Shown one piece after another: positions 1,564 through 31,058 of a stretch of DNA of 64,000 bases (positions are counted from its first letter, which is position 1; each line of letters begins with the position of its first letter). The translations under genes and the position numbers were made by a program. The notes beneath the pieces are model-generated. The model did no database searches and was not told the origin of the DNA. It saw only the letters and a program-made list of their open reading frames with translations. The stretch spans positions 40,578 to 104,577 of the forward strand of contig JBBABA010000001.1 of the NCBI GenBank assembly GCA_041657955.1. The letters run 5' to 3'. This stretch comes from Thermoplasmata archaeon. GTDB taxonomy: Archaea; Thermoplasmatota; JASEFT01; JBBABA01.

Positions 1564-1713
1564 AGGTAGATTCTATACACTCTTCTATAAGCCAAATGGG
1601 TCGGGGGCTTAAGAAAACATTGTAAACTCTTAATTTTTGTAAGCCAAATGATTATATAATAATCAATAATATTTGTGTTTGGAGTGTATTCGAGTTTAGG
1701 GATTTGATAAAAT

Positions 1714-2151
1714 ATGGTAAAAAATGTTAGTGAATTAATGAAAGAGATAAAGAGAGAATACGATAAAAATGCAGAAAATTGGCGCATACTCAGAGGTAGG
1801 GATGATAGAGGCCATTACGATACATTTGTATTTGGTAACGAAAAGTTGTGGCATATGAAGACCGAATGGAAGACTCCGTACCAACCAGTAGGGGTGGGTA
1901 AAAAAATAGAAGATTTTTCTAACAAAGTAGAGAAGATACTTACTGAGAGAGGTGAATATTTCCCCTTCGGTGAAATTTATCCTCAAGCAAAAGACAGCGC
2001 AATTATCGCGATAGGTATAGGCAGGTATTCGCCAAGTTCTACAAAAGAATTAAAACACATAATCTCAGGACAAGAAGATCTTGAAAGGAAATTGAAGGAA
2101 GAACTAAATAGATTATTGAGAGAAGAAGAATTGATGAAAGAGTACTGCTGA
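1714..2151 (+). CDS. hypothetical protein
   Basis: 145-aa ORF in a coding-dense region; no recognisable motif. Confidence 0.4.
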   Translation: MVKNVSELMKEIKREYDKNAENWRILRGRDDRGHYDTFVFGNEKLWHMKTEWKTPYQPVGVGKKIEDFSNKVEKILTERGEYFPFGEIYPQAKDSAIIAIGIGRYSPSSTKELKHIISGQEDLERKLKEELNRLLREEELMKEYC

Positions 2152-2200
2152 GACCGCATTTAAATGTATATTTTAAACCGCACTATTTTCGATGAGTAAC

Positions 2201-2767
2201 CTATTCTACTTCTAATTTTGTCTCCTTTGGTTTTAATTTCTCGGGTATCTTGTCAGTGAATCTCCTAACCTTTGTCTTGCTCTCGTCAAGGAGTTTCTTC
2301 GAGAGCGGGTCCACATACTCCCCATCATAAACAATCTCGACAACGCTTGCATTAATCAGCATCTTCGCGCATATCACGCACGGATAAGTTGTGGAATAAA
2401 TGGTCGTGTCCTTTATGCTTGTTCCAAAGACTGCGGACTGGATAATCGCATTCTGCTCCGCATGCACGCCCCTGCACAATTCATGCCTGTAGCCGGACGG
2501 TATCGGTGTGTTGTATTCCGCAAATAATTTTTTGACTTCCTTAATCTCTTCTTCAGCATACAATTCGATATTCGGCCTGCCCATCCGCATGCACCCGACC
2601 TCTGAACAGTGTTTCAGTCCTTTCGGGGCGCCGTTATATCCGGTAGCCAGCACCCGCGTATCCTTCACGAGCACAGCCCCGACCTGCCTTCTCAAACAGG
2701 TAGAGCGTTGGCTCACCAGGTACGCCATGTTCATGAAGTATTGATCTAAGGATAATCTCTCGCTCAT
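2201..2767 (-). CDS. dCMP (deoxycytidylate) deaminase
   Basis: cytidine/dCMP deaminase zinc motifs H-A-E (HAEQNA) and PCxxC (PCVICAKM). Confidence 0.75.
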   Translation of the reverse strand: MSERLSLDQYFMNMAYLVSQRSTCLRRQVGAVLVKDTRVLATGYNGAPKGLKHCSEVGCMRMGRPNIELYAEEEIKEVKKLFAEYNTPIPSGYRHELCRGVHAEQNAIIQSAVFGTSIKDTTIYSTTYPCVICAKMLINASVVEIVYDGEYVDPLSKKLLDESKTKVRRFTDKIPEKLKPKETKLEVE

Positions 2768-3127: not shown

Positions 3128-6100
3128 ATGTTTAGGCGACCTGTTATTTTCGCAGCATTATGTGTCCTGTTGTGCCTCCTCCCAACCCCATCAGTGGCTG
3201 CTGTGAAAGCATATTCACCTCCTGCATCATATCATACTTTTTCCTCCATGGTCCAGGAACTTCAGAATCTGCAGGCAAGCCATCCGGACCTGGTGAAGAT
3301 GGAGAGCATAGGAAAGACTTGGGAAGGCCGGGATATTTGGGCTGTAAAAATTTCAGATGATGTGGCAACAAACGATTCTAGTGAGCCGGACGTGTTAATT
3401 TTCGGTGGTATCCACGCACGCGAAGTCATGGGAGTAGAGGTTCCCATGTATGTACTGAACTACCTGATAGACAAGTACGGCACGGACGAGGCGTGCACAA
3501 AATACGTCAACACAAGGGAGATATGGTTCGTGCCTATGATCAACCCTGACGGGCATGATTTTGTTGTCGTGCAGGATTACGACTGGCGCAAAAATCGGCG
3601 CCCGACAACAGGAGGAAACATCGGAGTGGACCTAAACCGAAACTGGGGGTATATGTGGGGCACGGACTCAGCTACCAGTTCGAATCCGGCGAGCGAGACC
3701 TACCACGGCCCGTATCCCTTCTCGGAGAGCGAGATAATAGCCCTACGCGATCTGTCACTCAGGCAGCGATTCGCCACATCCCTCTCATTCCATAGCTTTG
3801 GCGAATATGTACTGTTCCCCTGGGGGTATACCAACACCCATTGTCCGGACTATACCGAACTCAGCACGATGGCGAATGTGATGGCGGGCATGAACGGTTA
3901 CACCGCGATGCCAGCATATCAGCTATACGTCACGCATGGTGATTCGGACGACTGGTTATATGGTACCACCAGCACGAAGGCGTTCACAATCGAATTAGAC
4001 GACAGGTTCTATCCACCGGAAAGCTGGATAAGCGCCACCTGCATCCTAAACCGCGGACCGGTGCTATACCTCATAGGCTACCCGCATTCTCAGATTGCTG
4101 ATGCCGGAATATTCGGGCTTACCAGCCCCGCCAACGGAACGGCTATTGGATCAGACAGTGTTTTGAATGTCAACGCAAGGGTGATGAACTATGGCGATTC
4201 TGAAATTGATATTCCTGTAGAACTGGCGATCACCTCGCCGGAAGGCTATACCGATATAAACTCCACCACTGCACATTTGCGGGCGGGACAGGTGAAGGAT
4301 GTTGTTTTCTCATGGTCTCCCCCGTTCCCGGGAACAGAGAACTATACTTTGAGCGTTCGTACTAATCTTACGGGCGACGAATATTCCCGGAACGATTGGA
4401 AGAATTCTTCATTCAAAATCAAGGCAAAATACGGCGTAACCCTCAACGCCACAAATCTTTCACGCAGCGCGTTTCCAGGAGAATCCGTGAACTACTCTTT
4501 CCAGATGTTTAGCTCGAGCAATAGAGAAGACGACGTCCTATTAGCGAAGTCTGGCAACCATGCGGAATGGGTTTCAGCACCGTCTTCCATTCACATTCTG
4601 CCCGGCGGCCAAACCGAGATAAACATAAGCGTTTCCATTCCGAGAAACGCCTCCGCGGGGGGAACTGTTGTTGTTTCCATTGGGGCGCAATCTTCGACTG
4701 GAGAGGGTTCCCCTGCACTCCTCACCACTCGAACTACGATACTAGACGCCACCCCTACAGCCGATGCGGGGAATGACGTTCTAGCAAACATTAGTGAGTC
4801 ATTAGAGTTTGATGGTTCCGGTTCTTCTACGCCTATCGGCACAATATTGCGGTACGCCTGGGACTTTGGAGATGGCAACGGCAGCGAAGGCACAAAGGCG
4901 GCACATTCCTATGAAAAAGCAGGAGATTATACGGTCAAACTAATGGTGTTCAACGATTTGGATTTGCAGGGAAGCGATTATGTTAATGTCACTGTTCAGC
5001 AACTATTCAGGATAAATCTCTCTGCGGAATCCACAGATATAGCGATTGCACCTGACGAATCCGTCAAAGTTAATCTAAGTGTTGTGAACTCGGGTGATGG
5101 CTTGGATGCCGTTAATGTCGATTTAAGCGCTCTGATGTGGAACGCGTCTCTCGACACACGCTACACTTCACTGAACGCTGGGCAAAAGAAGATTATGACA
5201 TTAAACGTCACTGCTCCGGTCGATGCGTTAGCAAACGCTAAGGCACAATTCCAAATCACAACAACATCCGCGGGAAATCCTCTGGCGAAGAGTTCTGTTA
5301 CAATCACAGCTACAGTAAAAGAGACGCGAAACCTGGTGTCGAATATTTCAGAAAGCGCCATGACTGCAAATGCCGGAGACAACGCCACATTTTGGCTGAC
5401 GTTCAATAATTCGGGCAATGTCAAAGAGAAACTCCAGATGTCAGCCGAGGATTTGCCTAAAGACTGGAAGATACTGTTCTCTTCGGATGTGGCAACTGTA
5501 GGGCCGCGGAACACCACGAAAATAAAAGCAAACGTTTCCGTGCCGTCAGATGCTCTCGCAGGAAGATATGTGTTTGCGGTAAACGGCCAGCATCTGGAGG
5601 TAGTTATCAATCCAAAATATGGGTTTGAAGCCTCGGCAAAACAATCGGCAACTGCAGTTGTTTCCGGAGAGCGAGTCCTGTTCGAAGTCGTAGTAAAAAA
5701 CGCCGGCAACGCGCCTGACACCTATTTCTTAAACTTCACAGAATTGCCTGCGGGGTGGTCGATTGAAAATTCCGATGCGTTTATCGTGCCCCCTGGAGAA
5801 AATTATACAAAGAGTACAGGTGTCCGGATTCCGAGTGGCACAACGTCTGGCAAGTACAATTTGACGTTTCAAATCTGCTCAGCCAATTCTACCAATATCA
5901 TAAAAAATTTGACGTTCCAAATAGAAGTGTCTGAAACACCGGTGGATAATGAGATAGCAAGCGAGTCCGAGGGTTTCTTTTCATCTCCAATATTTATCAT
6001 GAGCGCGATAGCTATTTTAATCATCCTGTCTGCGGCGGGCATCGGAATATATTACGTTTCCTGGACTATCCGGAAGAGCGATTCGATGAGCCGACCGTCC

Positions 6101-6391
6101 GCGGGTAGGTCCGGCACACCACCCACGAACATAGCCGGTGCGCCACCGGCGAATATGCCCAGTACATCTGTGATGCCCCCGCCCGAAAAATATCAACCAG
6201 AGGGGCACCCACCAGGGCCCCCACAATCGCAGACCATACTCGTGCAGGATACATACGTACCGTGCTTCCAGTGCCGCATGCCTCTGAATAAAGGCGAGAG
6301 TGGAAGGCTCTGCCCATCATGCGGTGCTGTCTTCCATGAATACTGCGCACATGCTACCGAGAGGTGCCACAGGTGCGGATGGTTGTTTTGA
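3128..6391 (+). CDS. secreted multidomain M14 zinc carboxypeptidase with PKD domain, C-terminal TM helix and cytoplasmic zinc-ribbon tail
   Basis: signal peptide; M14 motifs (GGIHAREV, HSFG); PKD-like WDFGDGN segment; hydrophobic helix near C-terminus followed by Pro-rich stretch and Cys-rich ribbon (CFQC...CPSC...CHRC). Confidence 0.8.
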   Translation: MFRRPVIFAALCVLLCLLPTPSVAAVKAYSPPASYHTFSSMVQELQNLQASHPDLVKMESIGKTWEGRDIWAVKISDDVATNDSSEPDVLIFGGIHAREVMGVEVPMYVLNYLIDKYGTDEACTKYVNTREIWFVPMINPDGHDFVVVQDYDWRKNRRPTTGGNIGVDLNRNWGYMWGTDSATSSNPASETYHGPYPFSESEIIALRDLSLRQRFATSLSFHSFGEYVLFPWGYTNTHCPDYTELSTMANVMAGMNGYTAMPAYQLYVTHGDSDDWLYGTTSTKAFTIELDDRFYPPESWISATCILNRGPVLYLIGYPHSQIADAGIFGLTSPANGTAIGSDSVLNVNARVMNYGDSEIDIPVELAITSPEGYTDINSTTAHLRAGQVKDVVFSWSPPFPGTENYTLSVRTNLTGDEYSRNDWKNSSFKIKAKYGVTLNATNLSRSAFPGESVNYSFQMFSSSNREDDVLLAKSGNHAEWVSAPSSIHILPGGQTEINISVSIPRNASAGGTVVVSIGAQSSTGEGSPALLTTRTTILDATPTADAGNDVLANISESLEFDGSGSSTPIGTILRYAWDFGDGNGSEGTKAAHSYEKAGDYTVKLMVFNDLDLQGSDYVNVTVQQLFRINLSAESTDIAIAPDESVKVNLSVVNSGDGLDAVNVDLSALMWNASLDTRYTSLNAGQKKIMTLNVTAPVDALANAKAQFQITTTSAGNPLAKSSVTITATVKETRNLVSNISESAMTANAGDNATFWLTFNNSGNVKEKLQMSAEDLPKDWKILFSSDVATVGPRNTTKIKANVSVPSDALAGRYVFAVNGQHLEVVINPKYGFEASAKQSATAVVSGERVLFEVVVKNAGNAPDTYFLNFTELPAGWSIENSDAFIVPPGENYTKSTGVRIPSGTTSGKYNLTFQICSANSTNIIKNLTFQIEVSETPVDNEIASESEGFFSSPIFIMSAIAILIILSAAGIGIYYVSWTIRKSDSMSRPSAGRSGTPPTNIAGAPPANMPSTSVMPPPEKYQPEGHPPGPPQSQTILVQDTYVPCFQCRMPLNKGESGRLCPSCGAVFHEYCAHATERCHRCGWLF

Positions 6392-6526: not shown

Positions 6527-6611
6527 GCAGGGGTAGTCAAGCTTGGCCAAAGGCGCAGGACTTAAGATCCTGTCTCGCAGGAGTACATGGGTTCAAATCC
6601 CTTCCCCTGCA
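6527..6611 (+). tRNA. tRNA-Leu (anticodon TAA)
   Basis: cloverleaf folded by hand: acceptor GCAGGGG/CCCCTGC, anticodon loop CTTAAGA, long variable arm, T-loop GGTTCAAATCC. Confidence 0.85.
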
Positions 6612-6676
6612 CTAATTAATCAAGGTACTACAAGTTTTGAATGATAAAAATAAAATTTTTCAAATAAGGTGCTTGT

Positions 6677-7162
6677 ATGGGCGTATTCAGCAAAAGAAAA
6701 AAAGACGACAACAAAGAAACAAAAGACAGTAATAAAGAGGCAAAAGACATTAATAAAGAAACAAAAGAAGAAAAAGAAACTCCTCAAAGGCGCAGAGTCT
6801 GGGGGATCAAAGAAAAAACATTAAAATTAATATTAGAAGTCTCGAAAGAAAGTTACCCGAATGAGTTTGCAGGTTTGCTGCGAGTTAAAAAAGGAATCAT
6901 AAGTGAATTGATCCTCCTGCCAGGGACGTTTTCCGGCGAAGATAACGCTATTTACCATCTTCACATGCTGCCTATCGACCTGAGCATAATCGGCACTGTC
7001 CACAGCCACCCGTCCGGAAACAACAGGCCGTCTGGCGCGGACCTGGCCCTGTTCAGTCATTATGGCAGCACACACATTATAGTGGGCACACCCTACGATA
7101 CGAGGTCTTGGAAAGCGTACGATACTGCTGGGAATTTGATACAATTGGAAGTCGTTGCATAA
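6677..7162 (+). CDS. JAMM/MPN-family metalloprotease (Mov34-like) with lysine-rich N-terminal tail
   Basis: JAMM motif HSHPSGNNRPSGAD (HxHx7SxxD). Confidence 0.75.
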   Translation: MGVFSKRKKDDNKETKDSNKEAKDINKETKEEKETPQRRRVWGIKEKTLKLILEVSKESYPNEFAGLLRVKKGIISELILLPGTFSGEDNAIYHLHMLPIDLSIIGTVHSHPSGNNRPSGADLALFSHYGSTHIIVGTPYDTRSWKAYDTAGNLIQLEVVA

Positions 7163-7294: not shown

Positions 7295-9049
7295 TTAGGT
7301 TTTTCTCTTCCTTAACGCGCATGAACAGATACCGACAAGCGGCAAAAGCAACGCAAATTCAAATCCGGGTATGAAGAAACTATCTACCTGCCCGGTCTTT
7401 ACGACTATAGAATCCTTTCCTTCTTTGCCAGAATCGTCAATCACCCTGAATACTGCGCGGTAGACACCGTTTTTTGGATACGTGTAATACACTTCTCCCG
7501 TGGTTGTGGAGTTCCAATCATACATGCCGTCGCCGTCAAAGTCCCATTGATAGTAGATTATTTTTCCGTCGGTGTCCGTGCCTTCGCCGTAGAAATGTAT
7601 TGTTGTGTTTCCTCCGACCGCTATGTCTCTCCCTGCGTTTGCGACCGGCGGTTTCTTGTTCGGATCAAGGTCGCCTATGATTATAGGAATTTTTGATGTA
7701 TCCGCGCTTATTGTCCCTTCGTTGTCCATTACTCTCAGCGAGGCTTCGTATCTCCCGCTGCGGGTGTATGTGTAGCGCGCACTTGGTAAAGTGGTCCATC
7801 CGCTATCAGTGCCGTCGCCGAAAATAAAGATGTATTTTTCAACAGCGCCGTCATTGTCCGTAGATTCCAAGCCATAAAAAGTAACAGATTTTCCTACATC
7901 GGCAACTACCGTATTCACTGTCAGCACGGGTTTCGGTCTTTGATTTGGATACTTCAAGACTTTGCCGCTGGTGCCGACGATTAGGGCATAGCCATTGTAA
8001 TCGCCGCCATACTCGCCCGTATATGGCCTCCAGGATACGGAGTACAAATCCATGTCCATTTCCGTGGATAGTGTTTCGATCGAGCTCTCGTTGCCGTATC
8101 TCAGTACGGTTCCCTTTTCTCCGACAATAATCGCGTATTCGCCGTCCGGTTTCCAGGAAATCTTGGTTAACTGCGTATTTTTCCATGCTACATCCGCATA
8201 TTTTGTTGAATCTACAGCTGTTTTTGTCTTGTAAGTGTTGCCGTCGTATTTCAGTATAACACCCCTGCTGCCCACAATGATCCCGTAATCGTCGTTTGGC
8301 CTCCAGGATATGCTTTGCAGCCAACTGTAACCCGCGGCAGCATCTATATTATACGAAATGTCTGAAAAACTGCTGGAGTAGTATCTCAATACAGTTCCGG
8401 AGTAACCGACACAAACAGCGAACGTGCCTCTTCTGCTCCATGCGATGCCGTGTAAATCGTCTGTCGTACCACTCTTAAACGATAGGTTTTGCACTTCTAC
8501 ACCATTGTATGTAAGCACAGAGCCGCTGTAGCCTACAATCATAGCATAAGTGCCGTCAGGAGACCAGGTAATGCTTCGCAACATGCTGCTGGTTCCGTTT
8601 TTAATAAACTCGCTTGAAAGATTCGTTATAGTGTCTGTCGCATTATCGTATCTCAAGATTGCTCCAAGATAGCTCTTCGCCTTATAGTCACCTACAATCA
8701 GCGCATAATCTTCGTATGGCGACCATGCAACATCATACAAATCGAAGTTCGAGTAATTGACAGATCCGTTTACCGTGGTGAACGCGCTACCATCATATTT
8801 CAAAATCGTGCCGTTGTTGCCAACGACCAGCGCGCAACTGCCGTCGGGTTTCCATGAAACTCCCCGGAGTGTATTTGTTGTCCCCGTGGAGATGACTGCT
8901 TTGTTGTCATAATCTACGAACGCCAAATCATTGTTATCCGCACGAACTGGTACTGTACTCAATAGTGGTGTCAGTATGAAAGTAAGTACGATCGCCCCTG
9001 CGAGCAGTCTTTTTTTCATGTTAATTTCTTCAGCCGCTTCCTTTTTCAT
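7295..9049 (-). CDS. surface protein: PD40-like beta-propeller repeats + PKD domains + PGF-CTERM anchor
   Basis: signal peptide (probable start at M11, 9019); ~8 repeats of W-x-PDG-x-YA-x-IVG; two PKD-like segments; C-terminal ...IPGFEFALLLPLVGI...RKRKT. Confidence 0.7.
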   Translation of the reverse strand: MKKEAAEEINMKKRLLAGAIVLTFILTPLLSTVPVRADNNDLAFVDYDNKAVISTGTTNTLRGVSWKPDGSCALVVGNNGTILKYDGSAFTTVNGSVNYSNFDLYDVAWSPYEDYALIVGDYKAKSYLGAILRYDNATDTITNLSSEFIKNGTSSMLRSITWSPDGTYAMIVGYSGSVLTYNGVEVQNLSFKSGTTDDLHGIAWSRRGTFAVCVGYSGTVLRYYSSSFSDISYNIDAAAGYSWLQSISWRPNDDYGIIVGSRGVILKYDGNTYKTKTAVDSTKYADVAWKNTQLTKISWKPDGEYAIIVGEKGTVLRYGNESSIETLSTEMDMDLYSVSWRPYTGEYGGDYNGYALIVGTSGKVLKYPNQRPKPVLTVNTVVADVGKSVTFYGLESTDNDGAVEKYIFIFGDGTDSGWTTLPSARYTYTRSGRYEASLRVMDNEGTISADTSKIPIIIGDLDPNKKPPVANAGRDIAVGGNTTIHFYGEGTDTDGKIIYYQWDFDGDGMYDWNSTTTGEVYYTYPKNGVYRAVFRVIDDSGKEGKDSIVVKTGQVDSFFIPGFEFALLLPLVGICSCALRKRKT

Positions 9050-9110
9050 ATAGCGTCTCCTTTTTGCGCACTCCGATAAAGTTATGAACCGACGAAATAT
9101 TAAACTAACC

Positions 9111-10889
9111 TCATTCCCTTTTCATAAACGAACCCTTCGGGAGGATTTTGTGGATTCTGTTTTGGATTTTCTTTTTTGCCGCATCAACAAATAGAATCAG
9201 CGAAACAATGCATAAGAGCGCAAGAATATCAAAGGCGGGTAGGAACCATCCTCCAGTTTCGCCGGCCTCTACGATAACCGTGTCCTTTGCGATGCCCCCG
9301 TTGTTATCAGTTACTCTGAAAACAGCACGATATGTACCGTTCTTTGGATAAGTATATGCTGCATTTCCCGTAGTTGTAGAATTCCAATCATATTTGCCGT
9401 CGCCGTCGAAATCCCATTGGTAGTAAACAATTCTTCCATCGGCGTCTATTCCCTCACCATAAAATTGTAAGCTTTTGCCACTCATTACCTTAATGTCCGG
9501 TCCTGCCTTGGCGGAGGGAGGTTTGTTGGTCGAATCTACGACTCCGACGATGACGGGTATTACCGCAACATTTGTGCTATATACATCCTTGTCGTCCCTG
9601 ACCCTAAGCGACGCGTTGTATCTTCCGACTGTATCGTATGCGTGGGTGGTCGCTGGATTGGCCATCCATCCGCTGTCAGTACCGTCACCAAACTCAAAAC
9701 AATATTGCCGAACGGCTCCGTCCGGGTCTCTTGAGTTGTAGCCATAGAACGTAACTATTCGCCCCTGGTTTGTCACCACGTCGTCAATAGTAATTTCTGC
9801 GATTGGCCTCTGATCTGGATACCTAAGCACCAAACCGTCGGTACCTGCTATAACCGCATAGCTCCCATTATACTCCCAAGACACACTGTGTAGGTCGGAA
9901 CCTATCTGCGTAGAAAGAGTTTCAAATTGGACAGGAAGAGACTCGTTGTATTTTATGACGAGCCCGTTGTCTCCCACTATGAGGGCGTATCCTTGGTATC
10001 CGTCCAAATCCGGGCGTTCGTCGGGCTTCCAAGCGATATTTCTCAATGTAGTAAATCTCCCAGCGCCTGCGTATTTTGTTGTGAATATTGTGCCGTCATA
10101 CTTAAGGATTGTTTCGTGTGTGCCGAGTATAAGTGCATATTCCCCGTCCGGGGACCATGTTACAGCCAATAGATCTTGGTCCGTCCTTCCTAGTAGTTCT
10201 ACACCACTCGTGAGGTTTGTGAATTCCTTATTTTTATCGTCGAATTTTATGACAGTACCCTTGTTCCCGACAATTAGTGCATAGCTGCCGTCTGGTTTCC
10301 AAGCGACGCTGGACAAATAAACGGTTTTGTCTTTTATAAACGTGAATCTCGTCTGGTTGTTGTCTGTCCTCGATGGATCAAATGCGGAGATGTGCCCCTC
10401 ATCGCCGACAAGCAGGGCGTAGCTGCCGTCGGGTTTCCATGCGGCGCCACGAATCGTGTTCGGGGTGTCGTGGGTGATAGGCACGTAAGAAACATTTGTG
10501 AGATTGCTGCCATCGTATCGGTATATGGAACCGTACTCCCCAACAATTAGCGCGAAGTCGCCCTGCGGTCGCCATGCTACTGCGTGCCAGTTAAACGCGA
10601 CGCCGAGATCGACTGGGATAAATCCGTTGTCCGTGCATTTTAGCACAGTCCTATCTCCAACAATGAGCCCGTACCTTGCCTTCGGTTTCCAATCTACTGC
10701 ATTGAGTGTTCTGTTTGTATTTGTGGGTGGCAAGGTCGCATCCAGAGGTTGAACACTGTAATGCACAACAAATGCAGGTCCATTGTCGTTTTGGGCACAA
10801 TTATTTGTAGGCAAGAAATTCAAAATCAGCAAAAGCATAACGAAGACGGCAAATATCGACGGTGTTTTTATGAACTTTTCCATTTTCAA
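9111..10889 (-). CDS. surface protein paralog: PD40-like beta-propeller repeats + PKD domains + PGF-CTERM-like (PAF) anchor
   Basis: same architecture as 7295..9049; C-terminal LPAFDILALLCIVSLILF followed by basic tail. Confidence 0.7.
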   Translation of the reverse strand: MKMEKFIKTPSIFAVFVMLLLILNFLPTNNCAQNDNGPAFVVHYSVQPLDATLPPTNTNRTLNAVDWKPKARYGLIVGDRTVLKCTDNGFIPVDLGVAFNWHAVAWRPQGDFALIVGEYGSIYRYDGSNLTNVSYVPITHDTPNTIRGAAWKPDGSYALLVGDEGHISAFDPSRTDNNQTRFTFIKDKTVYLSSVAWKPDGSYALIVGNKGTVIKFDDKNKEFTNLTSGVELLGRTDQDLLAVTWSPDGEYALILGTHETILKYDGTIFTTKYAGAGRFTTLRNIAWKPDERPDLDGYQGYALIVGDNGLVIKYNESLPVQFETLSTQIGSDLHSVSWEYNGSYAVIAGTDGLVLRYPDQRPIAEITIDDVVTNQGRIVTFYGYNSRDPDGAVRQYCFEFGDGTDSGWMANPATTHAYDTVGRYNASLRVRDDKDVYSTNVAVIPVIVGVVDSTNKPPSAKAGPDIKVMSGKSLQFYGEGIDADGRIVYYQWDFDGDGKYDWNSTTTGNAAYTYPKNGTYRAVFRVTDNNGGIAKDTVIVEAGETGGWFLPAFDILALLCIVSLILFVDAAKKKIQNRIHKILPKGSFMKRE

Positions 10890-16056: not shown

Positions 16057-16185
16057 CCCGGCTTAGCTCAGACTGGTGGAGCGGGGGACTGTAGTTGGTT
16101 CTCGGAAGCCACAGATCGCATGGTCGAAGGCTTCCGATTCCCCGTTGACATCCTCAGGTCGTTGGTTCAAATCCGACAGCCGGGA
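16057..16185 (+). tRNA. tRNA-Tyr (anticodon GTA) with ~55-nt intron after position 37
   Basis: C1-G72 and A73 (archaeal Tyr identity); anticodon loop CTGTAG|intron; intron has internal helix CGGAAGCC/GGCTTCCG; exon 2 A-TCCTC-AGGTC-GTTGGTTCAAATCCGAC-AGCCGGG-A. Confidence 0.7.
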
Positions 16186-23794: not shown

Positions 23795-24118
23795 AAAGAC
23801 GTTGAGATATACCGGGGTGTTAGGCGTACCCTGTGACCTATAAACCGTCTACAGTAGGGGCGAAGTTTGGGGGCAGTGATTCTGCTTGATATTGGACCAA
23901 ATGCTGCCGTTGAGACCACGTCCCTCGGGGGCTTGGGTGAATTTGGTTGCAGCCGGAGGGTTGCAGCCGTTTACTTCATCAGGGGAACCGGGTCAGGTCC
24001 GGAAGGAAGCAGCCTTATCCTGAACTATTGTCGCTCGAGGGGGTGCGGGGTTGAGAAGGTATTTGGAGCACCCAACTATTGAGCAGAGCACCCACCTCAC
24101 ACGCTCTCAGCGTCCGCT
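23795..24118 (+). ncRNA. signal recognition particle RNA (7S/SRP RNA)
   Basis: conserved helix-8 motif GGTCAGGTCCGGAAGGAAGCAGCC at ~23990-24014; GC-rich structured region; candidate terminal helix 23797-23806 / 24105-24114; exact ends uncertain. Confidence 0.65.
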
Positions 24119-26276: not shown

Positions 26277-29200
26277 ATGGCAGGCAAATCATTGTGCCAA
26301 AAGCATTATATCTCAGTAGCAGCGTATTTTATAAGTGGCATGCACGAATCAAAAATAAAGACGCAATTAAGCGCAATGTTTGTTGCATCGATACTAGCTA
26401 TATCTGTGCTTGTTGTTAGCGTTAGCTATATCTCCATATCTATGTCTATAAAAAATAGCGATGAGAAAAGAATTGATTTTTATGATGTAAACGGAAACAA
26501 GATAGAAGACGTGTTGGAGAATGTTGTTGCAAACAAACAGGAGAACGAAACCGTAAAAGCGATAGTTTCATTCAACAACAAGGACAACAACCATCACTTG
26601 AACGATTTTGAAGCTATAGGCGCAAAAATTTTGTTTGATTATCAGATAATAAACGGAATTGCCATAGAGCTTCCTTGCAATAACCTGACAAAGATACCAA
26701 ATATTGGGGATGTAGAATACGTCGAGCTCGACCGTGAGTATCGCATCCAATATAATGAAAATGATGCCGAGCTAGACCGCGAATACCGCACCCTGCTTAA
26801 TGACAAAGTCCAGTTGATAGACGCTGACCCGCCCACACTTCAAAAGTATGGTTATGGAGATATCACGGGATGGGGCGTAACAATCGCAGTCATAGACACC
26901 GGAATAGATCCAACCCACGAATCACTAGATGATATGGACGATAACCCTGCTACAACTGACCCAAAAGTTATCGGCTGGTATGATAATGTAAACCATAGGA
27001 CATCTGCTTATGACGACCAAGGGCATGGAACACATTGCGCTGGGATATGTGCGGGCACAGGAGGGCCATCACATACATACCGGGGTGTAGCTCCGGGGGC
27101 GAAATTGGTCGGCGTTAAAGTCATGAACAGCCAGGGTGGTGGCACAGAAAGCACGATGATTGACGGCCTAAACTGGATTATAAACAATAAAGGCAAGTAT
27201 AACATAAGAGTAATCTCGATGAGCTTGGGGCTGCCTTATTATATGGCGGCTATGGCTGGGATGCCATTAAACGGAAAGTCGACCATCGACAAGGCCGCAA
27301 CTGCCGCAGTAAACGCGGGGTTAATATTTGCCGTGGCTGCGGGTAATTCTGGCCATATGGATGTGCAGGGAAACCGCCTAATAGTTACAGAACCGCTTAA
27401 AGAAACCATAGGCCCGCCCGCTACATGCGAAGATGTGATAACTGTTGGAAGCAATTTTCTTTCCGGGAGTGACACGGGCGTAGATTTTTATTCCAGTAGG
27501 GGGCCGACATCGGACGGCAGAACAAAGCCCGACGTCGCGGCACCTGGTACAGACGTAATGGCTCCAAACGTCAACACCAAGACCGGTTATGTAAGGCACT
27601 CTGGCACCTCGATGGCCTGCCCAATGGTTGCTGGTTCTGCAGCGCTTGTTATAAATTATTATCTGAATGCTACGAAAGGGTATGAAAATTACTATCCGCA
27701 AACGACGGGGGGGCTCCCAATGCCTACAAACGCACAGGTAAAAAAACTTCTAGGAGAACTCACGGCAATCGACCTTTTTCCATACAGCGAACCAGGTAAG
27801 GATAACGACACAGGCTGGGGGTTGATAGATGTAAGCGAGGCAATGAACGCAATAAACTTTTTACCTATCGCAAAGGCAACAGCTAACACCACAACCGCGG
27901 TTGCCGGTGAAACAATAACTTTTACGGCTAAGGACACAACAGACATAAACGGTCCAAGGTCACGAGCTGTTTATATGTGGGATTTCGGAGACCAGTATGC
28001 GGACCCGGCAACAAACCCGAATAAGGATTGGTACATGAACACGAGCCACAAATTTACGCGCGGCGGCACGTACACAATAACACTGACAATCACAAACATC
28101 AAGGAAGCCACCTACAGCGAACCAGACGATTTTAAAAAGGCCAACACATGGGACGTCGGGGTTTCAGGCATCAACACCAAATCGATTCAAATAACGATTC
28201 TAAACAGCCCTCCGGTCGCTGTTATAAACAAAGTGAATTTCGCAAGCGACATTGTTCCGACAAATCAGCAGACTTCTTTCGACGCATCGCAATCCTATGA
28301 TAATGACACGAGCACTCCAAACAATCCTCTGCAGTATAAGTGGGCATTTGGGGACGGTTCATCTACTGATTGGGCAAGTTCGCCTACTGCACAGCACACG
28401 TATGTGACCAAAGGCACATACAACGTCGTCTTAACAGTGAAGGATGATGCCGACGCCACGGCCACAGACACCATGACACTAAAGGCGACGAGTCCTCCAG
28501 CCGCAGTACCCGGGCCTAGTCAAACCGTTAAGACAAACGAAGTTGTTTATTTTAACGGTACAGGAACAGACAGCGACGGCTCGATCGCCAAATATTTGTG
28601 GGATTTCGACGGCGACGGCACGTATGATTGGGAGTCTACAACCACAGGAAAGACAACGCATACTTACCAGCACAAAGGAGCGTATGACGCCGCCTTTAAG
28701 ACAATAGACGACATGGGCGCAGAAACAATCACCAAGGTAAAAATAAACATCGAAAACACGCTGCCTGTGCCGATAGTTAAAATAACGAAATCGAACGTTA
28801 CTTACCCAGGCGACACCGTACGTTTTGATGCATCCAGCTCTTACGACACAGACACCCACACACAGCAAAACCCAATATCATTCAAATGGATATTTGGCGA
28901 CGGTGCGACCTCTACCGACGCAGCCACCAACCACATCTATCAGGACAACGGCATATATAATTTGACACTCCAAATAACCGATGACGATTTTGGAATTACA
29001 ATTTATCGACAAAATTTAACAATACTGAACAAAAAACCCATAGCGACAATAGACGAGAATACGCGCCTGACAAACATAACAACAGCAAACAGCGGAGAAG
29101 AGATTTTATTTACATCGCCTAGCGCGTACGACCCTGACACCCATACGCCAAGCGCCCCGATAACTTACCAATGGGACTTCGGCGATGGGAATATCGGATA

Positions 29201-31058
29201 TGGCAAAAATGCAAGACATATTTTTGCGCACAAGGGCAACTATCTCATCAACCTGACAATACTTGACGATGACAACGAAAGCGCAGAAGTCAACCTCACA
29301 ATAAATATCACAATAAATAATAGAAAACCAGCTGTCGACACAGCAAACATCACACAGATGGCGAACATCACCGAAATAACAAGCGGTCAATCAATATCTT
29401 TTACGGCTCCAAACGCAACAGATATAGATACCCACGCATCAGGCAATCCGATAATTTACCAATGGAACTTCGGCGACGGGTGCATAGAGATTGGTAAAGA
29501 AATCGCACACACTTTTGCGCACGGCGGCAATTACAATGTTGTTCTAACAATACTTGACGATGACAACGAAAGCGCAGAAGGCAATTTCACAACGAATGTT
29601 ATTGTAAATAATAGAAAACCAATAGTTAATGTGACTGATACCACGCAGATAGTGAGCGCAAGCGAAACAAAAAGCGGACAATCGATAGCATTTACAGCGC
29701 CGAACGCAACAGACCCCGACACTAACACATCAGATAATCCAGTAACTTACCTATGGGATTTCGGCGATGGAAGTACTAGTGCGGAGAAAACCCCAAATCA
29801 CACCTACAATAAAAGCGGCTTCTTTAATGTGACATTGAAGATAATCGACGATAGTAACGAAACCGTAGTTAAATACATACCAATCCAGATATTAAACACG
29901 CCCCCGCTAGTCAGTAATGTGAGCGCGCCGAAGGCGGGGGACGCAGGCAAAGGACTTTCTTTTGCCGCAAATTGTGCGGATGCCGACGGGGCGATCGTGG
30001 ATTACATATGGGATTTCGGCGACGGCACAACCGAAAAAGGTTCCGAAGTTACCCACGTGTATAAGCGAGGAGGCGCGTACACGGTTACGTTAATCGTTAC
30101 AGATAACGAAGGGGGCGTGACGAACACAACCACAACAGTCAACGTCAGCGGGACGATTGGGGATGTTATCGGTATACCTCTAGATGGAGTCACACTCATT
30201 CTGTTTATTGTGCCGATTATTGTCCTGGTGTGTGTAGCAGTAGTCTATTCTAGAAGACGGGGAAAACGAAAAGAGAAGGAAGCACCGGAAGAAGAGAAAC
30301 CAAAAGAAACACCGGAATCAACAAAAGGAACTGCAGCAACACAAATGTTGGGTGGTGTAGATGGGCACAATGAAAGTTTACCACTTCCAGGGTACCCCGC
30401 GGGAGAGCGGCAGCAAACAGGATATCCCGCATACGGACAGACTGATGCCCAAGCGGCGGATGCTGGGTGGCGGCCGCAGCATATACCGCCGGCACAACCA
30501 GGATATGGAAGTGAAGAAGCAATAGGAAGAGAAACGCAACAGGCACCGGTAGGGCCAGAAGGAAGAAAATCTGTTTATGATGCATACGGCCAGCAGCTAG
30601 ACGCGAGAAAATCCGCGAAACCTGCGGCAACGGCTACACAGACAAGATGCCCCAAATGCCGTTACTCCATATTGGTCACATCGCCCGAGAGGCCAATCAA
30701 GGTGCACTGCCCGAAGTGTGGCACAGTGGGCATATTAAAACAAAAACCAACACAAAAAACACCCGTACCAGAGCAACGCTACGAAACGCCTCCGAGAAAA
30801 CCCGCGCTGGGGACGGTGCAGAAACAGGCAGAAAGACAGCATGGCTATGAACAGCCGCCCGCAAAAAAATCCATACTGGATGGGATGAAGAAAGGGCCGG
30901 AAGGAAAACCTCTTGTAAAAAAACAATCACAAACTAGCACCAAAAACTGTCCAAGATGCCAAACACCAATAGTTATAACCCAGAGCACAAGACCGCTTAC
31001 TATAACCTGCCCGAGTTGCGGGCTTTCATGCGTTCTGCGCAAACAAAAAACCTTATAA
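26277..31058 (+). CDS. secreted subtilisin-like serine protease (S8) with ~8 PKD-like domains, C-terminal TM helix and cytoplasmic tail with two zinc ribbons
   Basis: catalytic triad motifs VIDTGID, HGTHCAG, GTSMACPMVAG; repeated WDFGDG PKD cores; TM LILFIVPIIVLVCVAVV; tail with two CPxC-x17-CPxC ribbons; start may be Met22 or Met34. Confidence 0.85.
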   Translation: MAGKSLCQKHYISVAAYFISGMHESKIKTQLSAMFVASILAISVLVVSVSYISISMSIKNSDEKRIDFYDVNGNKIEDVLENVVANKQENETVKAIVSFNNKDNNHHLNDFEAIGAKILFDYQIINGIAIELPCNNLTKIPNIGDVEYVELDREYRIQYNENDAELDREYRTLLNDKVQLIDADPPTLQKYGYGDITGWGVTIAVIDTGIDPTHESLDDMDDNPATTDPKVIGWYDNVNHRTSAYDDQGHGTHCAGICAGTGGPSHTYRGVAPGAKLVGVKVMNSQGGGTESTMIDGLNWIINNKGKYNIRVISMSLGLPYYMAAMAGMPLNGKSTIDKAATAAVNAGLIFAVAAGNSGHMDVQGNRLIVTEPLKETIGPPATCEDVITVGSNFLSGSDTGVDFYSSRGPTSDGRTKPDVAAPGTDVMAPNVNTKTGYVRHSGTSMACPMVAGSAALVINYYLNATKGYENYYPQTTGGLPMPTNAQVKKLLGELTAIDLFPYSEPGKDNDTGWGLIDVSEAMNAINFLPIAKATANTTTAVAGETITFTAKDTTDINGPRSRAVYMWDFGDQYADPATNPNKDWYMNTSHKFTRGGTYTITLTITNIKEATYSEPDDFKKANTWDVGVSGINTKSIQITILNSPPVAVINKVNFASDIVPTNQQTSFDASQSYDNDTSTPNNPLQYKWAFGDGSSTDWASSPTAQHTYVTKGTYNVVLTVKDDADATATDTMTLKATSPPAAVPGPSQTVKTNEVVYFNGTGTDSDGSIAKYLWDFDGDGTYDWESTTTGKTTHTYQHKGAYDAAFKTIDDMGAETITKVKINIENTLPVPIVKITKSNVTYPGDTVRFDASSSYDTDTHTQQNPISFKWIFGDGATSTDAATNHIYQDNGIYNLTLQITDDDFGITIYRQNLTILNKKPIATIDENTRLTNITTANSGEEILFTSPSAYDPDTHTPSAPITYQWDFGDGNIGYGKNARHIFAHKGNYLINLTILDDDNESAEVNLTINITINNRKPAVDTANITQMANITEITSGQSISFTAPNATDIDTHASGNPIIYQWNFGDGCIEIGKEIAHTFAHGGNYNVVLTILDDDNESAEGNFTTNVIVNNRKPIVNVTDTTQIVSASETKSGQSIAFTAPNATDPDTNTSDNPVTYLWDFGDGSTSAEKTPNHTYNKSGFFNVTLKIIDDSNETVVKYIPIQILNTPPLVSNVSAPKAGDAGKGLSFAANCADADGAIVDYIWDFGDGTTEKGSEVTHVYKRGGAYTVTLIVTDNEGGVTNTTTTVNVSGTIGDVIGIPLDGVTLILFIVPIIVLVCVAVVYSRRRGKRKEKEAPEEEKPKETPESTKGTAATQMLGGVDGHNESLPLPGYPAGERQQTGYPAYGQTDAQAADAGWRPQHIPPAQPGYGSEEAIGRETQQAPVGPEGRKSVYDAYGQQLDARKSAKPAATATQTRCPKCRYSILVTSPERPIKVHCPKCGTVGILKQKPTQKTPVPEQRYETPPRKPALGTVQKQAERQHGYEQPPAKKSILDGMKKGPEGKPLVKKQSQTSTKNCPRCQTPIVITQSTRPLTITCPSCGLSCVLRKQKTL

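Follow-up and report, generated by a model that had tools for sequence, protein, structure and literature searches.

A tandem pair of propeller-PKD surface proteins carrying a Loki-CTERM-like C-terminal tag in a Thermoplasmata archaeon

Two adjacent genes of a Thermoplasmata archaeon raise the question of how their products are held at the cell surface and what they do there. According to a preliminary description of the locus, tandem paralogs on the same strand encode surface proteins with a signal peptide, about eight PD40-like blades, two PKD-like domains and a C-terminal helix with a basic tail; the C-terminus was regarded as the PGF-CTERM hallmark of archaeosortase A substrates, and the pair was linked to neighbouring peptidases. 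In this study, the window is the whole 64-kb stretch of DNA that was analysed, and all of the features located below lie on its minus strand.

The gene pair and its domain plan

Gene A (7295..9049) is an ORF of 584 aa and gene B (9111..10889) is an ORF of 592 aa that begins with TTG, and each encodes a surface protein in which a propeller is followed by two PKD domains and a C-terminal tag. An alternative start of B, the ATG at 10883, yields a protein of 590 aa that matches the database entry P0001, and this ATG is probably the true start. The two proteins are 41% identical over their full length (E 3e-138) and are paralogs. The spacer between B and A (9050..9110, 61 bp) contains an AT-rich stretch (TTTAATATTT) and a GGAG located 8 nt before the start codon of A. 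The tandem arrangement and the general plan are therefore as first described, and the data support the reading of A and B as tandem paralogous, secreted and surface-anchored proteins, each joining a propeller to two PKD domains and ending in a tripartite tail.

Both proteins begin with a hydrophobic, signal-like segment and end with a helix. The signal peptide of A (8939..9049, residues 1-37, with a start possibly at Met11) would be cleaved, as judged by eye, after V-R-A, and that of B (10794..10889, residues 1-32, N-terminal hydrophobicity 3.49) after N-C-A; in the predicted structure of A, the N-terminus is a helix (residues 2-30) followed by a disordered linker. Each protein contains about 10 N-glycosylation sequons, so both are probably glycosylated. 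The sequon density of 1.7 per 100 aa is twice the compositional expectation, and the corresponding values are 2.0-2.6 in the secreted M14 and S8 peptidases and 0.2-0.4 in cytoplasmic proteins. Together, the signal-like N-terminus, the C-terminal helix and a sequon density like that of the secreted peptidases suggest, at the level of sequence, that A and B are extracellular.

The propeller of A (7949..8896, residues 52-367) has blade motifs at residues 61, 104, 157, 199, 244, 294 and 335, and the propeller of B (9819..10757, residues ~45-357) is colinear with it, with motifs at 62, 101, 146, 192, 240, 282 and 333. The blade repeat, W-x-PDG-x-YALIVG-x-x-G-x-hh-x-Y-DG, matches WD40-type profiles. 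Over the whole proteins, the WD40 profile gives 31.2 and 29.7 bits for the pair (cutoff 27) and the ANAPC4_WD40 profile gives 32.6 and 25.9 bits (cutoff 22.9), with no single repeat significant alone in either case. The structure prediction run on A returned a propeller fold with 28 strands in seven blades. Judged by profile and predicted fold, this is a seven-bladed propeller of the WD40 type. The eight blades proposed earlier are ruled out by the seven motifs in each protein and by the predicted structure, and the proposed PD40 identity (PF07676, cutoff 20.9 bits) is likewise rejected because only B matches that profile, with 10.5 bits and an E value of 0.65. The likeness of the W-x-PDG-x-YA motif to PD40 is visual only. 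By sequence, the propeller has no relative among solved structures (the best match is IFT122, E 4e-4), and the fold matches are generic.

Two PKD domains in each protein follow in tandem, at residues 368-460 and 461-552 of A (7394..7948) and at residues ~358-450 and ~451-542 of B (9264..9818). Membership was defined by a score above the Pfam gathering score for PF18911, PF00801 or PF22352 together with an Ig-like beta-sandwich. The PKD_4 profile covers two stretches in each protein (A 92.4 bits, B 101 bits, cutoff 27), the K319L-like PKD profile gives 31.4 bits for A and 37.2 bits for B (residues 462-540 of B, cutoff 27), and beta-sandwiches occupy both segments of the predicted A structure. 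This part of the preliminary description holds in full. The PKD domain of the clostridial collagenase ColH matches across both PKD domains with an E value of 9e-21.

The C-terminal tag

The tag of A (7298..7393) consists of FFIPGFE (residues 558-564, nt 7358-7378), a hydrophobic core of 15 residues and RKRKT, and the C-terminal helix of the predicted structure spans residues 564-583. The tag of B (9114..9263) consists of WFLPAFD (residues 548-554, nt 9228-9248), a core of 14 residues bounded by Asp at both ends, and then, after the second Asp, AA-KKK and a non-conserved tail of 18 residues. The helix and basic tail are thus present in both proteins, and the consensus for the tag reads F-[IL]-P-[GAS]-F-[DE].

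If A and B were bona fide PGF-CTERM proteins, they would be cleaved and lipid-anchored by archaeosortase A (ArtA). A literal PGF does stand beside the helix, ahead of a basic cluster, in A and in its ortholog P0002, and long tails would be tolerable because ArtA can process a tripartite signal located away from the extreme C-terminus (PMC6098224). However, the PGF-CTERM model TIGR04126 (cutoff 24.5 bits) finds no match in the full A and B proteins at E<=1 and none at E<=10 on the isolated tails of A, B, P0002, the A-ortholog P0004 and the B-ortholog beside it on contig L081, whereas a canonical halophile-type tail, used as a positive control, scores 51.1 bits. On the tails of other matches, the model gives 32.2 bits for the PGFT tail of P0200, 17 bits for PGFG and only ~6 bits for PGFE-type tails. 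Moreover, the tripeptide varies: A and P0002 have PGF, P0004 has VGF, B and the B-ortholog have PAF and P0066 has PSF, and only the Phe and the following Asp or Glu are invariant in the A- and B-type tags. A direct reading of both sequences reveals no Ser/Thr-rich linker before the motif, and no artA gene is present in the window. Judged by the family's own model with its positive control, the PGF-CTERM identity originally claimed is rejected, and anchoring by archaeosortase A is a very improbable account of this pair.

The Loki-CTERM model NF033507 (cutoff 19.9 bits) comes closer. It gives A 13.6 bits as a full protein and 18.8 bits when the tail is scored in isolation, with the tail aligned to positions 1-24 of the 27 in the model; P0002 reaches 15.8 bits, and all of these scores lie below the cutoff. 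No Loki-CTERM match was obtained for B or P0004, and the WFLPAFD tail of B matched no CTERM model, either isolated or within the full protein; the sequence GGWFLPAFDIL is nevertheless kept in the B-ortholog on L081. In related archaea, the same model is passed by the tails of P0066 (28.3 bits), P0210 (20.7 bits) and P0214 (20.0 bits), and the Heimdall-CTERM model is passed by the tail of P0045 (24.3 bits). The passing tails read [FIL]-[IL]-P-[GS]-F-E, followed by about 15-18 hydrophobic residues and then K/R. An acidic residue after the Phe is common to the A- and B-type tags and the tails that pass Loki-CTERM. The closest model for the tag is Loki-CTERM rather than PGF-CTERM, and we consider the tag to be Loki-CTERM-like in its sequence, with A below the threshold and B matching no model. 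Because both tags fall under the curated cutoffs, annotation pipelines would return "WD40/PKD domain proteins" and miss them.

The tag is not confined to this architecture. The alignment of relatives comprised 33 sequences. The pattern [PV][GAS]F[DEG] abuts the C-terminal helix in 11 of the 39 propeller-family relatives that have such a helix, compared with 1 of 109 C-terminal-helix ORF ends in ~1.3 Mb of other archaeal loci, and this difference places the motif beyond chance. Proteins with a propeller, CARDB and He_PIG, propeller-only proteins and multi-PKD proteins of related archaea carry the tag. One tagged protein, P0043, is encoded on contig L086, which comes from the same run as a strain contig 98-99% identical to the window and has a tetranucleotide correlation to the window of 0.945, equal to within-window values; it is likely to be a third tagged protein of the same or a sister genome. 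In 80 Thermoplasmata loci around GlyRS, neither relatives of A and B nor such tags were found.

These observations bear on a simpler explanation, in which A and B are plain type-I membrane proteins with a permanent transmembrane anchor, the basic residues are a positive-inside stop-transfer cluster, and the motif is an uncleaved juxtamembrane segment. The sub-threshold or absent CTERM scores of A and B agree with this explanation, as do the long cytoplasmic tails that it would assign to B and P0002. The tail of P0002 is not conserved and measures 26 aa when counted from the KK, or about 24 beyond it. Such long non-conserved stretches after the basic cluster are unusual for sorting tags. The S8 and M14 proteins of the same organism are clearly anchored permanently, with uncharged stretches of 22 and 33 residues ahead of long cytoplasmic tails. 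By contrast, the hydrophobic core of A and B comprises only 14-15 residues (16 in the PGF-CTERM control) and has acidic flanks, the motif directly adjoins the helix and is found on ectodomains that are unrelated to one another, and the tails of relatives pass curated sorting-domain models. Abutment without a spacer and recurrence on unrelated ectodomains are features of exosortase/archaeosortase-type signals (Haft preprint). A permanent anchor is, on balance, unlikely, although it retains appreciable weight.

A sorting enzyme was not found within the window, as a plain anchor would lead one to expect. No archaeosortase, rhomboid-like or CPBP-like candidate occurs in its 64 kb; of the four ORFs with at least four predicted TM segments, three are YaaH, OPT and MFS by profile, and the fourth carries the GMHCAAC heavy-metal-binding (heavy-metal-ATPase) motif. 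In 88 loci, ORFs of 200-420 aa with at least six TM segments gave 17 candidates, none of them archaeosortase-like by eye, and our literature search turned up neither a processing enzyme nor an experiment reported for Loki-CTERM or Heimdall-CTERM. Because unrelated ectodomains share the tag and its core is short, the tag is most likely seen by a dedicated intramembrane sorting enzyme. By analogy with known sorting systems, processing of A and B by such an enzyme is plausible.

Conservation and neighbourhood of the pair

In the second organism, represented by contig L081, a fragment of the B-ortholog (71% identity) lies directly upstream of the A-ortholog P0004 (73%), and the conserved order of B followed by A suggests that the two proteins act together. 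Among 1.84 billion representatives, just two clusters at 50% identity have the full architecture of A and B. The search of these representatives was dominated by multi-PKD giants.

Propellers are common binding modules, which is compatible with the earlier proposal that the pair may form an array capturing substrates for the neighbouring peptidases; these would be the M14, S8 and C25 enzymes, with OPT as the peptide transporter. The gene for the M14 carboxypeptidase, which has a PKD domain, lies ~900 bp from A, with a tRNA-Leu and a JAB gene between them, and the window also encodes an S8 subtilase with eight PKD domains, the C25 peptidase and the OPT transporter. However, each of the latter three lies 15-30 kb away, and the other flank of the pair consists of the housekeeping genes Memo, uS2, RpoK and GlyRS. 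Furthermore, the adjacency is not conserved; on L081 the genes after the pair encode GT4 and GT2 glycosyltransferases and a CarboxypepD_reg/PKD protein, and in a strain variant a 1.9-kb insertion separates the JAB gene next to the pair from the M14 peptidase gene. The link to the peptidases is not supported by this comparison, and we regard a capture array as improbable.

The preferred reading and known systems

A and B are best read as surface proteins with a binding or envelope role, anchored at the C-terminus and probably N-glycosylated. Our explanation as a whole, which we hold to be somewhat probable, is that they are an old, conserved surface pair of deep-branching Thermoplasmata whose Loki-CTERM-like tag is likely sorted by an enzyme. 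According to this explanation, A and B would be exported by the Sec pathway through their N-terminal signal peptides and probably N-glycosylated at their sequons. The profiles and the model show the propeller, a putative generic platform for binding ligands or proteins, at the tip of a stalk made of the two PKD domains. The tripartite tag seen in both sequences (F-[IL]-P-[GA]-F-[DE] ahead of a short hydrophobic helix and Lys/Arg) would hold each protein in the membrane until, by analogy with ArtA and PGF-CTERM, a dedicated intramembrane enzyme removed the helix and left a different anchor. More speculatively, A and B might form a heteromer in the cell envelope. A bolder version, which we think doubtful, is that the tag belongs to an uncharacterised sorting system outside Asgard, in deep Thermoplasmata, served by an enzyme other than ArtA, that B and A are components of a heteromeric envelope structure sorted by this system, and that WFLPAFD...FVD is a second flavour of the tag, one missed by all current models.

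Should the tag prove to be a genuine sorting signal, the Loki/Heimdall-CTERM class would extend to Thermoplasmata, and A, B and probably P0043 would provide a small, well-defined set of cargo proteins with which phylogenetic profiling could seek the enzyme, so that this orphan signal would become testable. Otherwise, A and B simply add to the lineage-specific archaeal surface proteins assembled from common modules.

In overall build, A and B resemble the surface-layer-related YVTN/PKD proteins of Methanosarcina, reportedly described by Jing et al. in Structure in 2002, which are also secreted archaeal proteins with a seven-bladed propeller and Ig-like PKD domains. They differ in having blades of the WD40 type and in combining a single propeller with exactly two PKD domains and a tag. 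Among solved structures, the PKD domains of the clostridial collagenases ColH and ColG alone resemble A and B at the sequence level; the similarity is confined to the PKD stalk, and A and B have no catalytic domain.

[quoted passage not shown] In that system, removal of the helix and lipid anchoring have been proposed, and processing fails in H. volcanii when PGF is permuted (PMC6098224). In A and B, the residue after the Phe is acidic rather than small and the Pro and Gly are replaceable, in addition to the lack of a model match, of a linker and, within the window, of artA noted above. The Loki-CTERM (NF033507) and Heimdall-CTERM (NF045529) systems differ from A and B in that the host of the latter is a Thermoplasmata archaeon rather than an Asgard archaeon; as for Loki-CTERM, the isolated tail of A lies ~1 bit below the cutoff, and B, with Asp at both ends of its helix, goes undetected. 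Nevertheless, the tripartite layout and the signature of A and B match those of the tails that pass these models.

A conserved pair of propeller proteins

The two minus-strand genes, A (7295-9049, 584 aa) and B (9111-10889, 592 aa when read from a TTG), are separated by a spacer of 61 bp. The TTG is probably two codons too early as the start of B, and P0001, the database copy of this protein, has 590 aa and uses the ATG at 10883. The preliminary description of adjacent same-strand paralogs is confirmed by an end-to-end alignment with 41% identity (E 3e-138), and the identity per domain is 62% in PKD2, 50% in PKD1, 42% in the propeller and 28% in the tail.

Two PKD domains, as originally described, were detected in each protein well over the Pfam threshold. 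The propeller had been described as about eight PD40-like blades; however, exactly seven copies of the repeat L-x-x-[IV]-x-W-x-PDG-x-YALIVG-x-x-G-x-hh-x-Y-DG are present in each of the two proteins, and a PD40 identity was ruled out by the lack of a profile match (E 0.65). Profile matches in this region are instead limited to WD40-clan models, among which WD40 and ANAPC4_WD40 exceed their whole-protein cutoffs with no individual repeat being significant. A 33-sequence alignment was used to model A with AlphaFold, and the resulting structure (mean pLDDT 80) contains seven four-stranded blades (residues 52-367) rather than eight, two beta-sandwiches (368-460 and 461-552), a linker of low confidence and a helix (564-583) that begins directly after PGF. 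The solved structures related by sequence cover PKD domains only, namely those of the collagenases ColH and ColG. The domain architecture of both proteins is observed directly, and their extracellular location is suggested by the signal-like N-terminus, the C-terminal helix and the density of N-x-S/T sequons. Each protein has 10 sequons, approximately twice the compositional expectation, and this density is similar to that of the secreted peptidases of the window and 5-10 times as high as in its cytoplasmic proteins. In the best-supported interpretation, A and B are a conserved pair of surface proteins that are anchored at the C-terminus and probably N-glycosylated, and each would present its propeller, a generic binding platform, on a stalk of two PKD domains.

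The same W-x-PDG-x-YALIVG propellers are also fused to C-terminal winged-helix (MarR/ArsR-type) DNA-binding domains in the database proteins P0035, P0069, P0099 and P0118-P0120. These are annotated as "predicted transcriptional regulator" and would form a cytoplasmic branch of this family.

The C-terminal tag

Protein A ends in GQVDSFFIPGFE-FALLLPLVGICSCAL-RKRKT, and B ends in GGWFLPAFD-ILALLCIVSLILFV-DAAKKK-IQNRIHKILPKGSFMKRE. Both tails have a short motif (with PGF in A and PAF in B), a helix and basic residues. The PGF-CTERM model TIGR04126 had no match at E<=10 on the isolated tails and none on the full proteins, and the positive control, a canonical tail of the halophile type, scored 51 bits. 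Classical ArtA/PGF-CTERM membership was rejected by this defining test. The only model approached by A is Loki-CTERM (NF033507), with 18.8 bits for the isolated tail and 13.6 bits for the full protein against a cutoff of 19.9; the B tail matched no CTERM model, even when cut after KKK. Despite these sub-cutoff or absent scores, the tag is real. The pattern [PV][GAS]F[DEG] abuts the C-terminal helix in 11 of the 39 propeller-family relatives with such a helix, vs. 1 of 109 in other archaeal loci, and its carriers differ in ectodomain (propeller with CARDB and He_PIG, propeller only, or multi-PKD). The consensus is F-[IL]-P-[GAS]-F-[DE], in which the acidic residue is invariant. The tails of the relatives P0066, P0210 and P0214 passed the Loki-CTERM cutoff and that of P0045 passed the Heimdall-CTERM cutoff, whereas PGFT and PGFG tails score on PGF-CTERM instead. 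Therefore, the acidic variant represents a distinct, database-described class. Neither Loki-CTERM nor Heimdall-CTERM was the subject of any paper in our literature search.

Recurrence, geometry and similarity to curated models point to a cleaved sorting signal, and we give this reading and a plain transmembrane anchor about equal weight. The hydrophobic core following the motif is 14-19 residues long, and that of the PGF-CTERM control has 16; the uncharged runs of the permanent anchors in the S8 and M14 peptidases of the window span 22 and 33 residues and are followed by long zinc-ribbon tails.

Some propeller-family relatives (P0007 and P0050) end in IPEFPSP, a helix and RRKR, with weak scores of 11-12 bits on the PEF-CTERM and PEFG-CTERM models. 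Several tag flavours thus exist within the family.

Conservation and genomic setting

Among 1.84 billion representatives, full-length matches were confined to two clusters at 50% identity, an A-type (P0004) and a B-type (P0001). The A-type orthologs, P0002 and P0004, share 72-73% identity with A and carry the motifs FFVPGFD and FFIVGFD with tails of 26 and 8 residues, respectively. Directly upstream of P0004 on its own contig lies a truncated B-ortholog (71% identity over 203 aa) that ends in GGWFLPAFDILTLLYIISLVVFVDVIRRRNKKDGTK. Therefore, the B-then-A tandem and the PAF-D...FVD flavour of B are conserved, and this comparison places the duplication before the split of the organisms. The neighbours of P0004 are two glycosyltransferases and a CarboxypepD_reg/PKD protein, with no peptidases. 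The earlier suggestion that the propellers feed neighbouring peptidases draws on nothing beyond proximity, which is not conserved. Another protein, P0043, has the tag GFLPGFES; its 22-kb contig derives from the sequencing run that also yielded L082, a strain contig 98-99% identical to the window (Logan SRR29054603). The tetranucleotide correlation of the P0043 contig with the window (0.945) equals within-window values, and P0043 probably belongs to the same or a sister genome, as a third protein with the tag.

L082 contains approximately 1.9 kb of extra sequence (L082 9141-11063) between the JAB and M14 genes, at window site 6615-6714 beside tRNA-Leu (6527-6612). This extra sequence encodes a 436-aa DUF4352 and fn3 protein. 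A second variable spot occurs at window 1565-2256, and an indel lies within the GlyRS gene (593 aa in the window vs. 630 aa in L082).

The window is archaeal, because it contains an archaeal SRP RNA (23800-24112). No species representative is more than 54% identical to its GlyRS, for which the best matches are all Thermoplasmata or Methanomassiliicoccales MAGs; therefore, the host is a deep-branching member of the Thermoplasmata without a close reference genome. The A/B pair is flanked by Memo, uS2, RpoK and GlyRS on one side and by the JAB-domain gene, tRNA-Leu and a secreted M14 carboxypeptidase on the other, and an S8 subtilase with eight PKD domains, a C25 peptidase and an OPT transporter are located farther away.

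An extracellular proteolysis gene cluster, comprising M14 (3128-6391), S8 (26277-31058), gingipain-like C25 (36043-37983) and the OPT oligopeptide transporter (38897-41647), points to an organism that degrades proteins, a way of life also proposed for Thermoplasmata from sediment. The S8 and M14 enzymes, both on the plus strand, are secreted type-I membrane proteins whose long cytoplasmic tails contain CxxC...CxxC zinc-ribbon motifs, in two copies of the form CPKCRYSILVTSPERPIKVHCPKCGTVGILK in S8. A tail of the same kind ends several propeller-family relatives (P0023, P0030 and P0042), and the cytoplasmic zinc ribbon is recurrent on extracellular enzymes. A 129-nt tRNA match (16057-16185, plus strand; Rfam, 46 bits) without an ARAGORN call may be an intron-containing archaeal tRNA.

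Comparison with archaeosortase A

No archaeosortase-like ORF is present in the 64-kb window. Only four of its ORFs have at least four predicted transmembrane segments; profile scans identified three as YaaH, OPT and MFS family members, and a heavy-metal-ATPase motif is present in the fourth. It is conceivable, but in our view rather unlikely, that an orphan sorting system exists in Thermoplasmata and has an A/B heteromer as its cargo. In the known system, ArtA cuts off the PGF-CTERM helix, after which the protein is lipid-anchored, and processing is blocked when PGF is permuted (PMC6098224). A tripartite signal followed by a long extension is still processable by ArtA (PMC6098224). Therefore, the long tail of B is atypical, yet compatible with processing.
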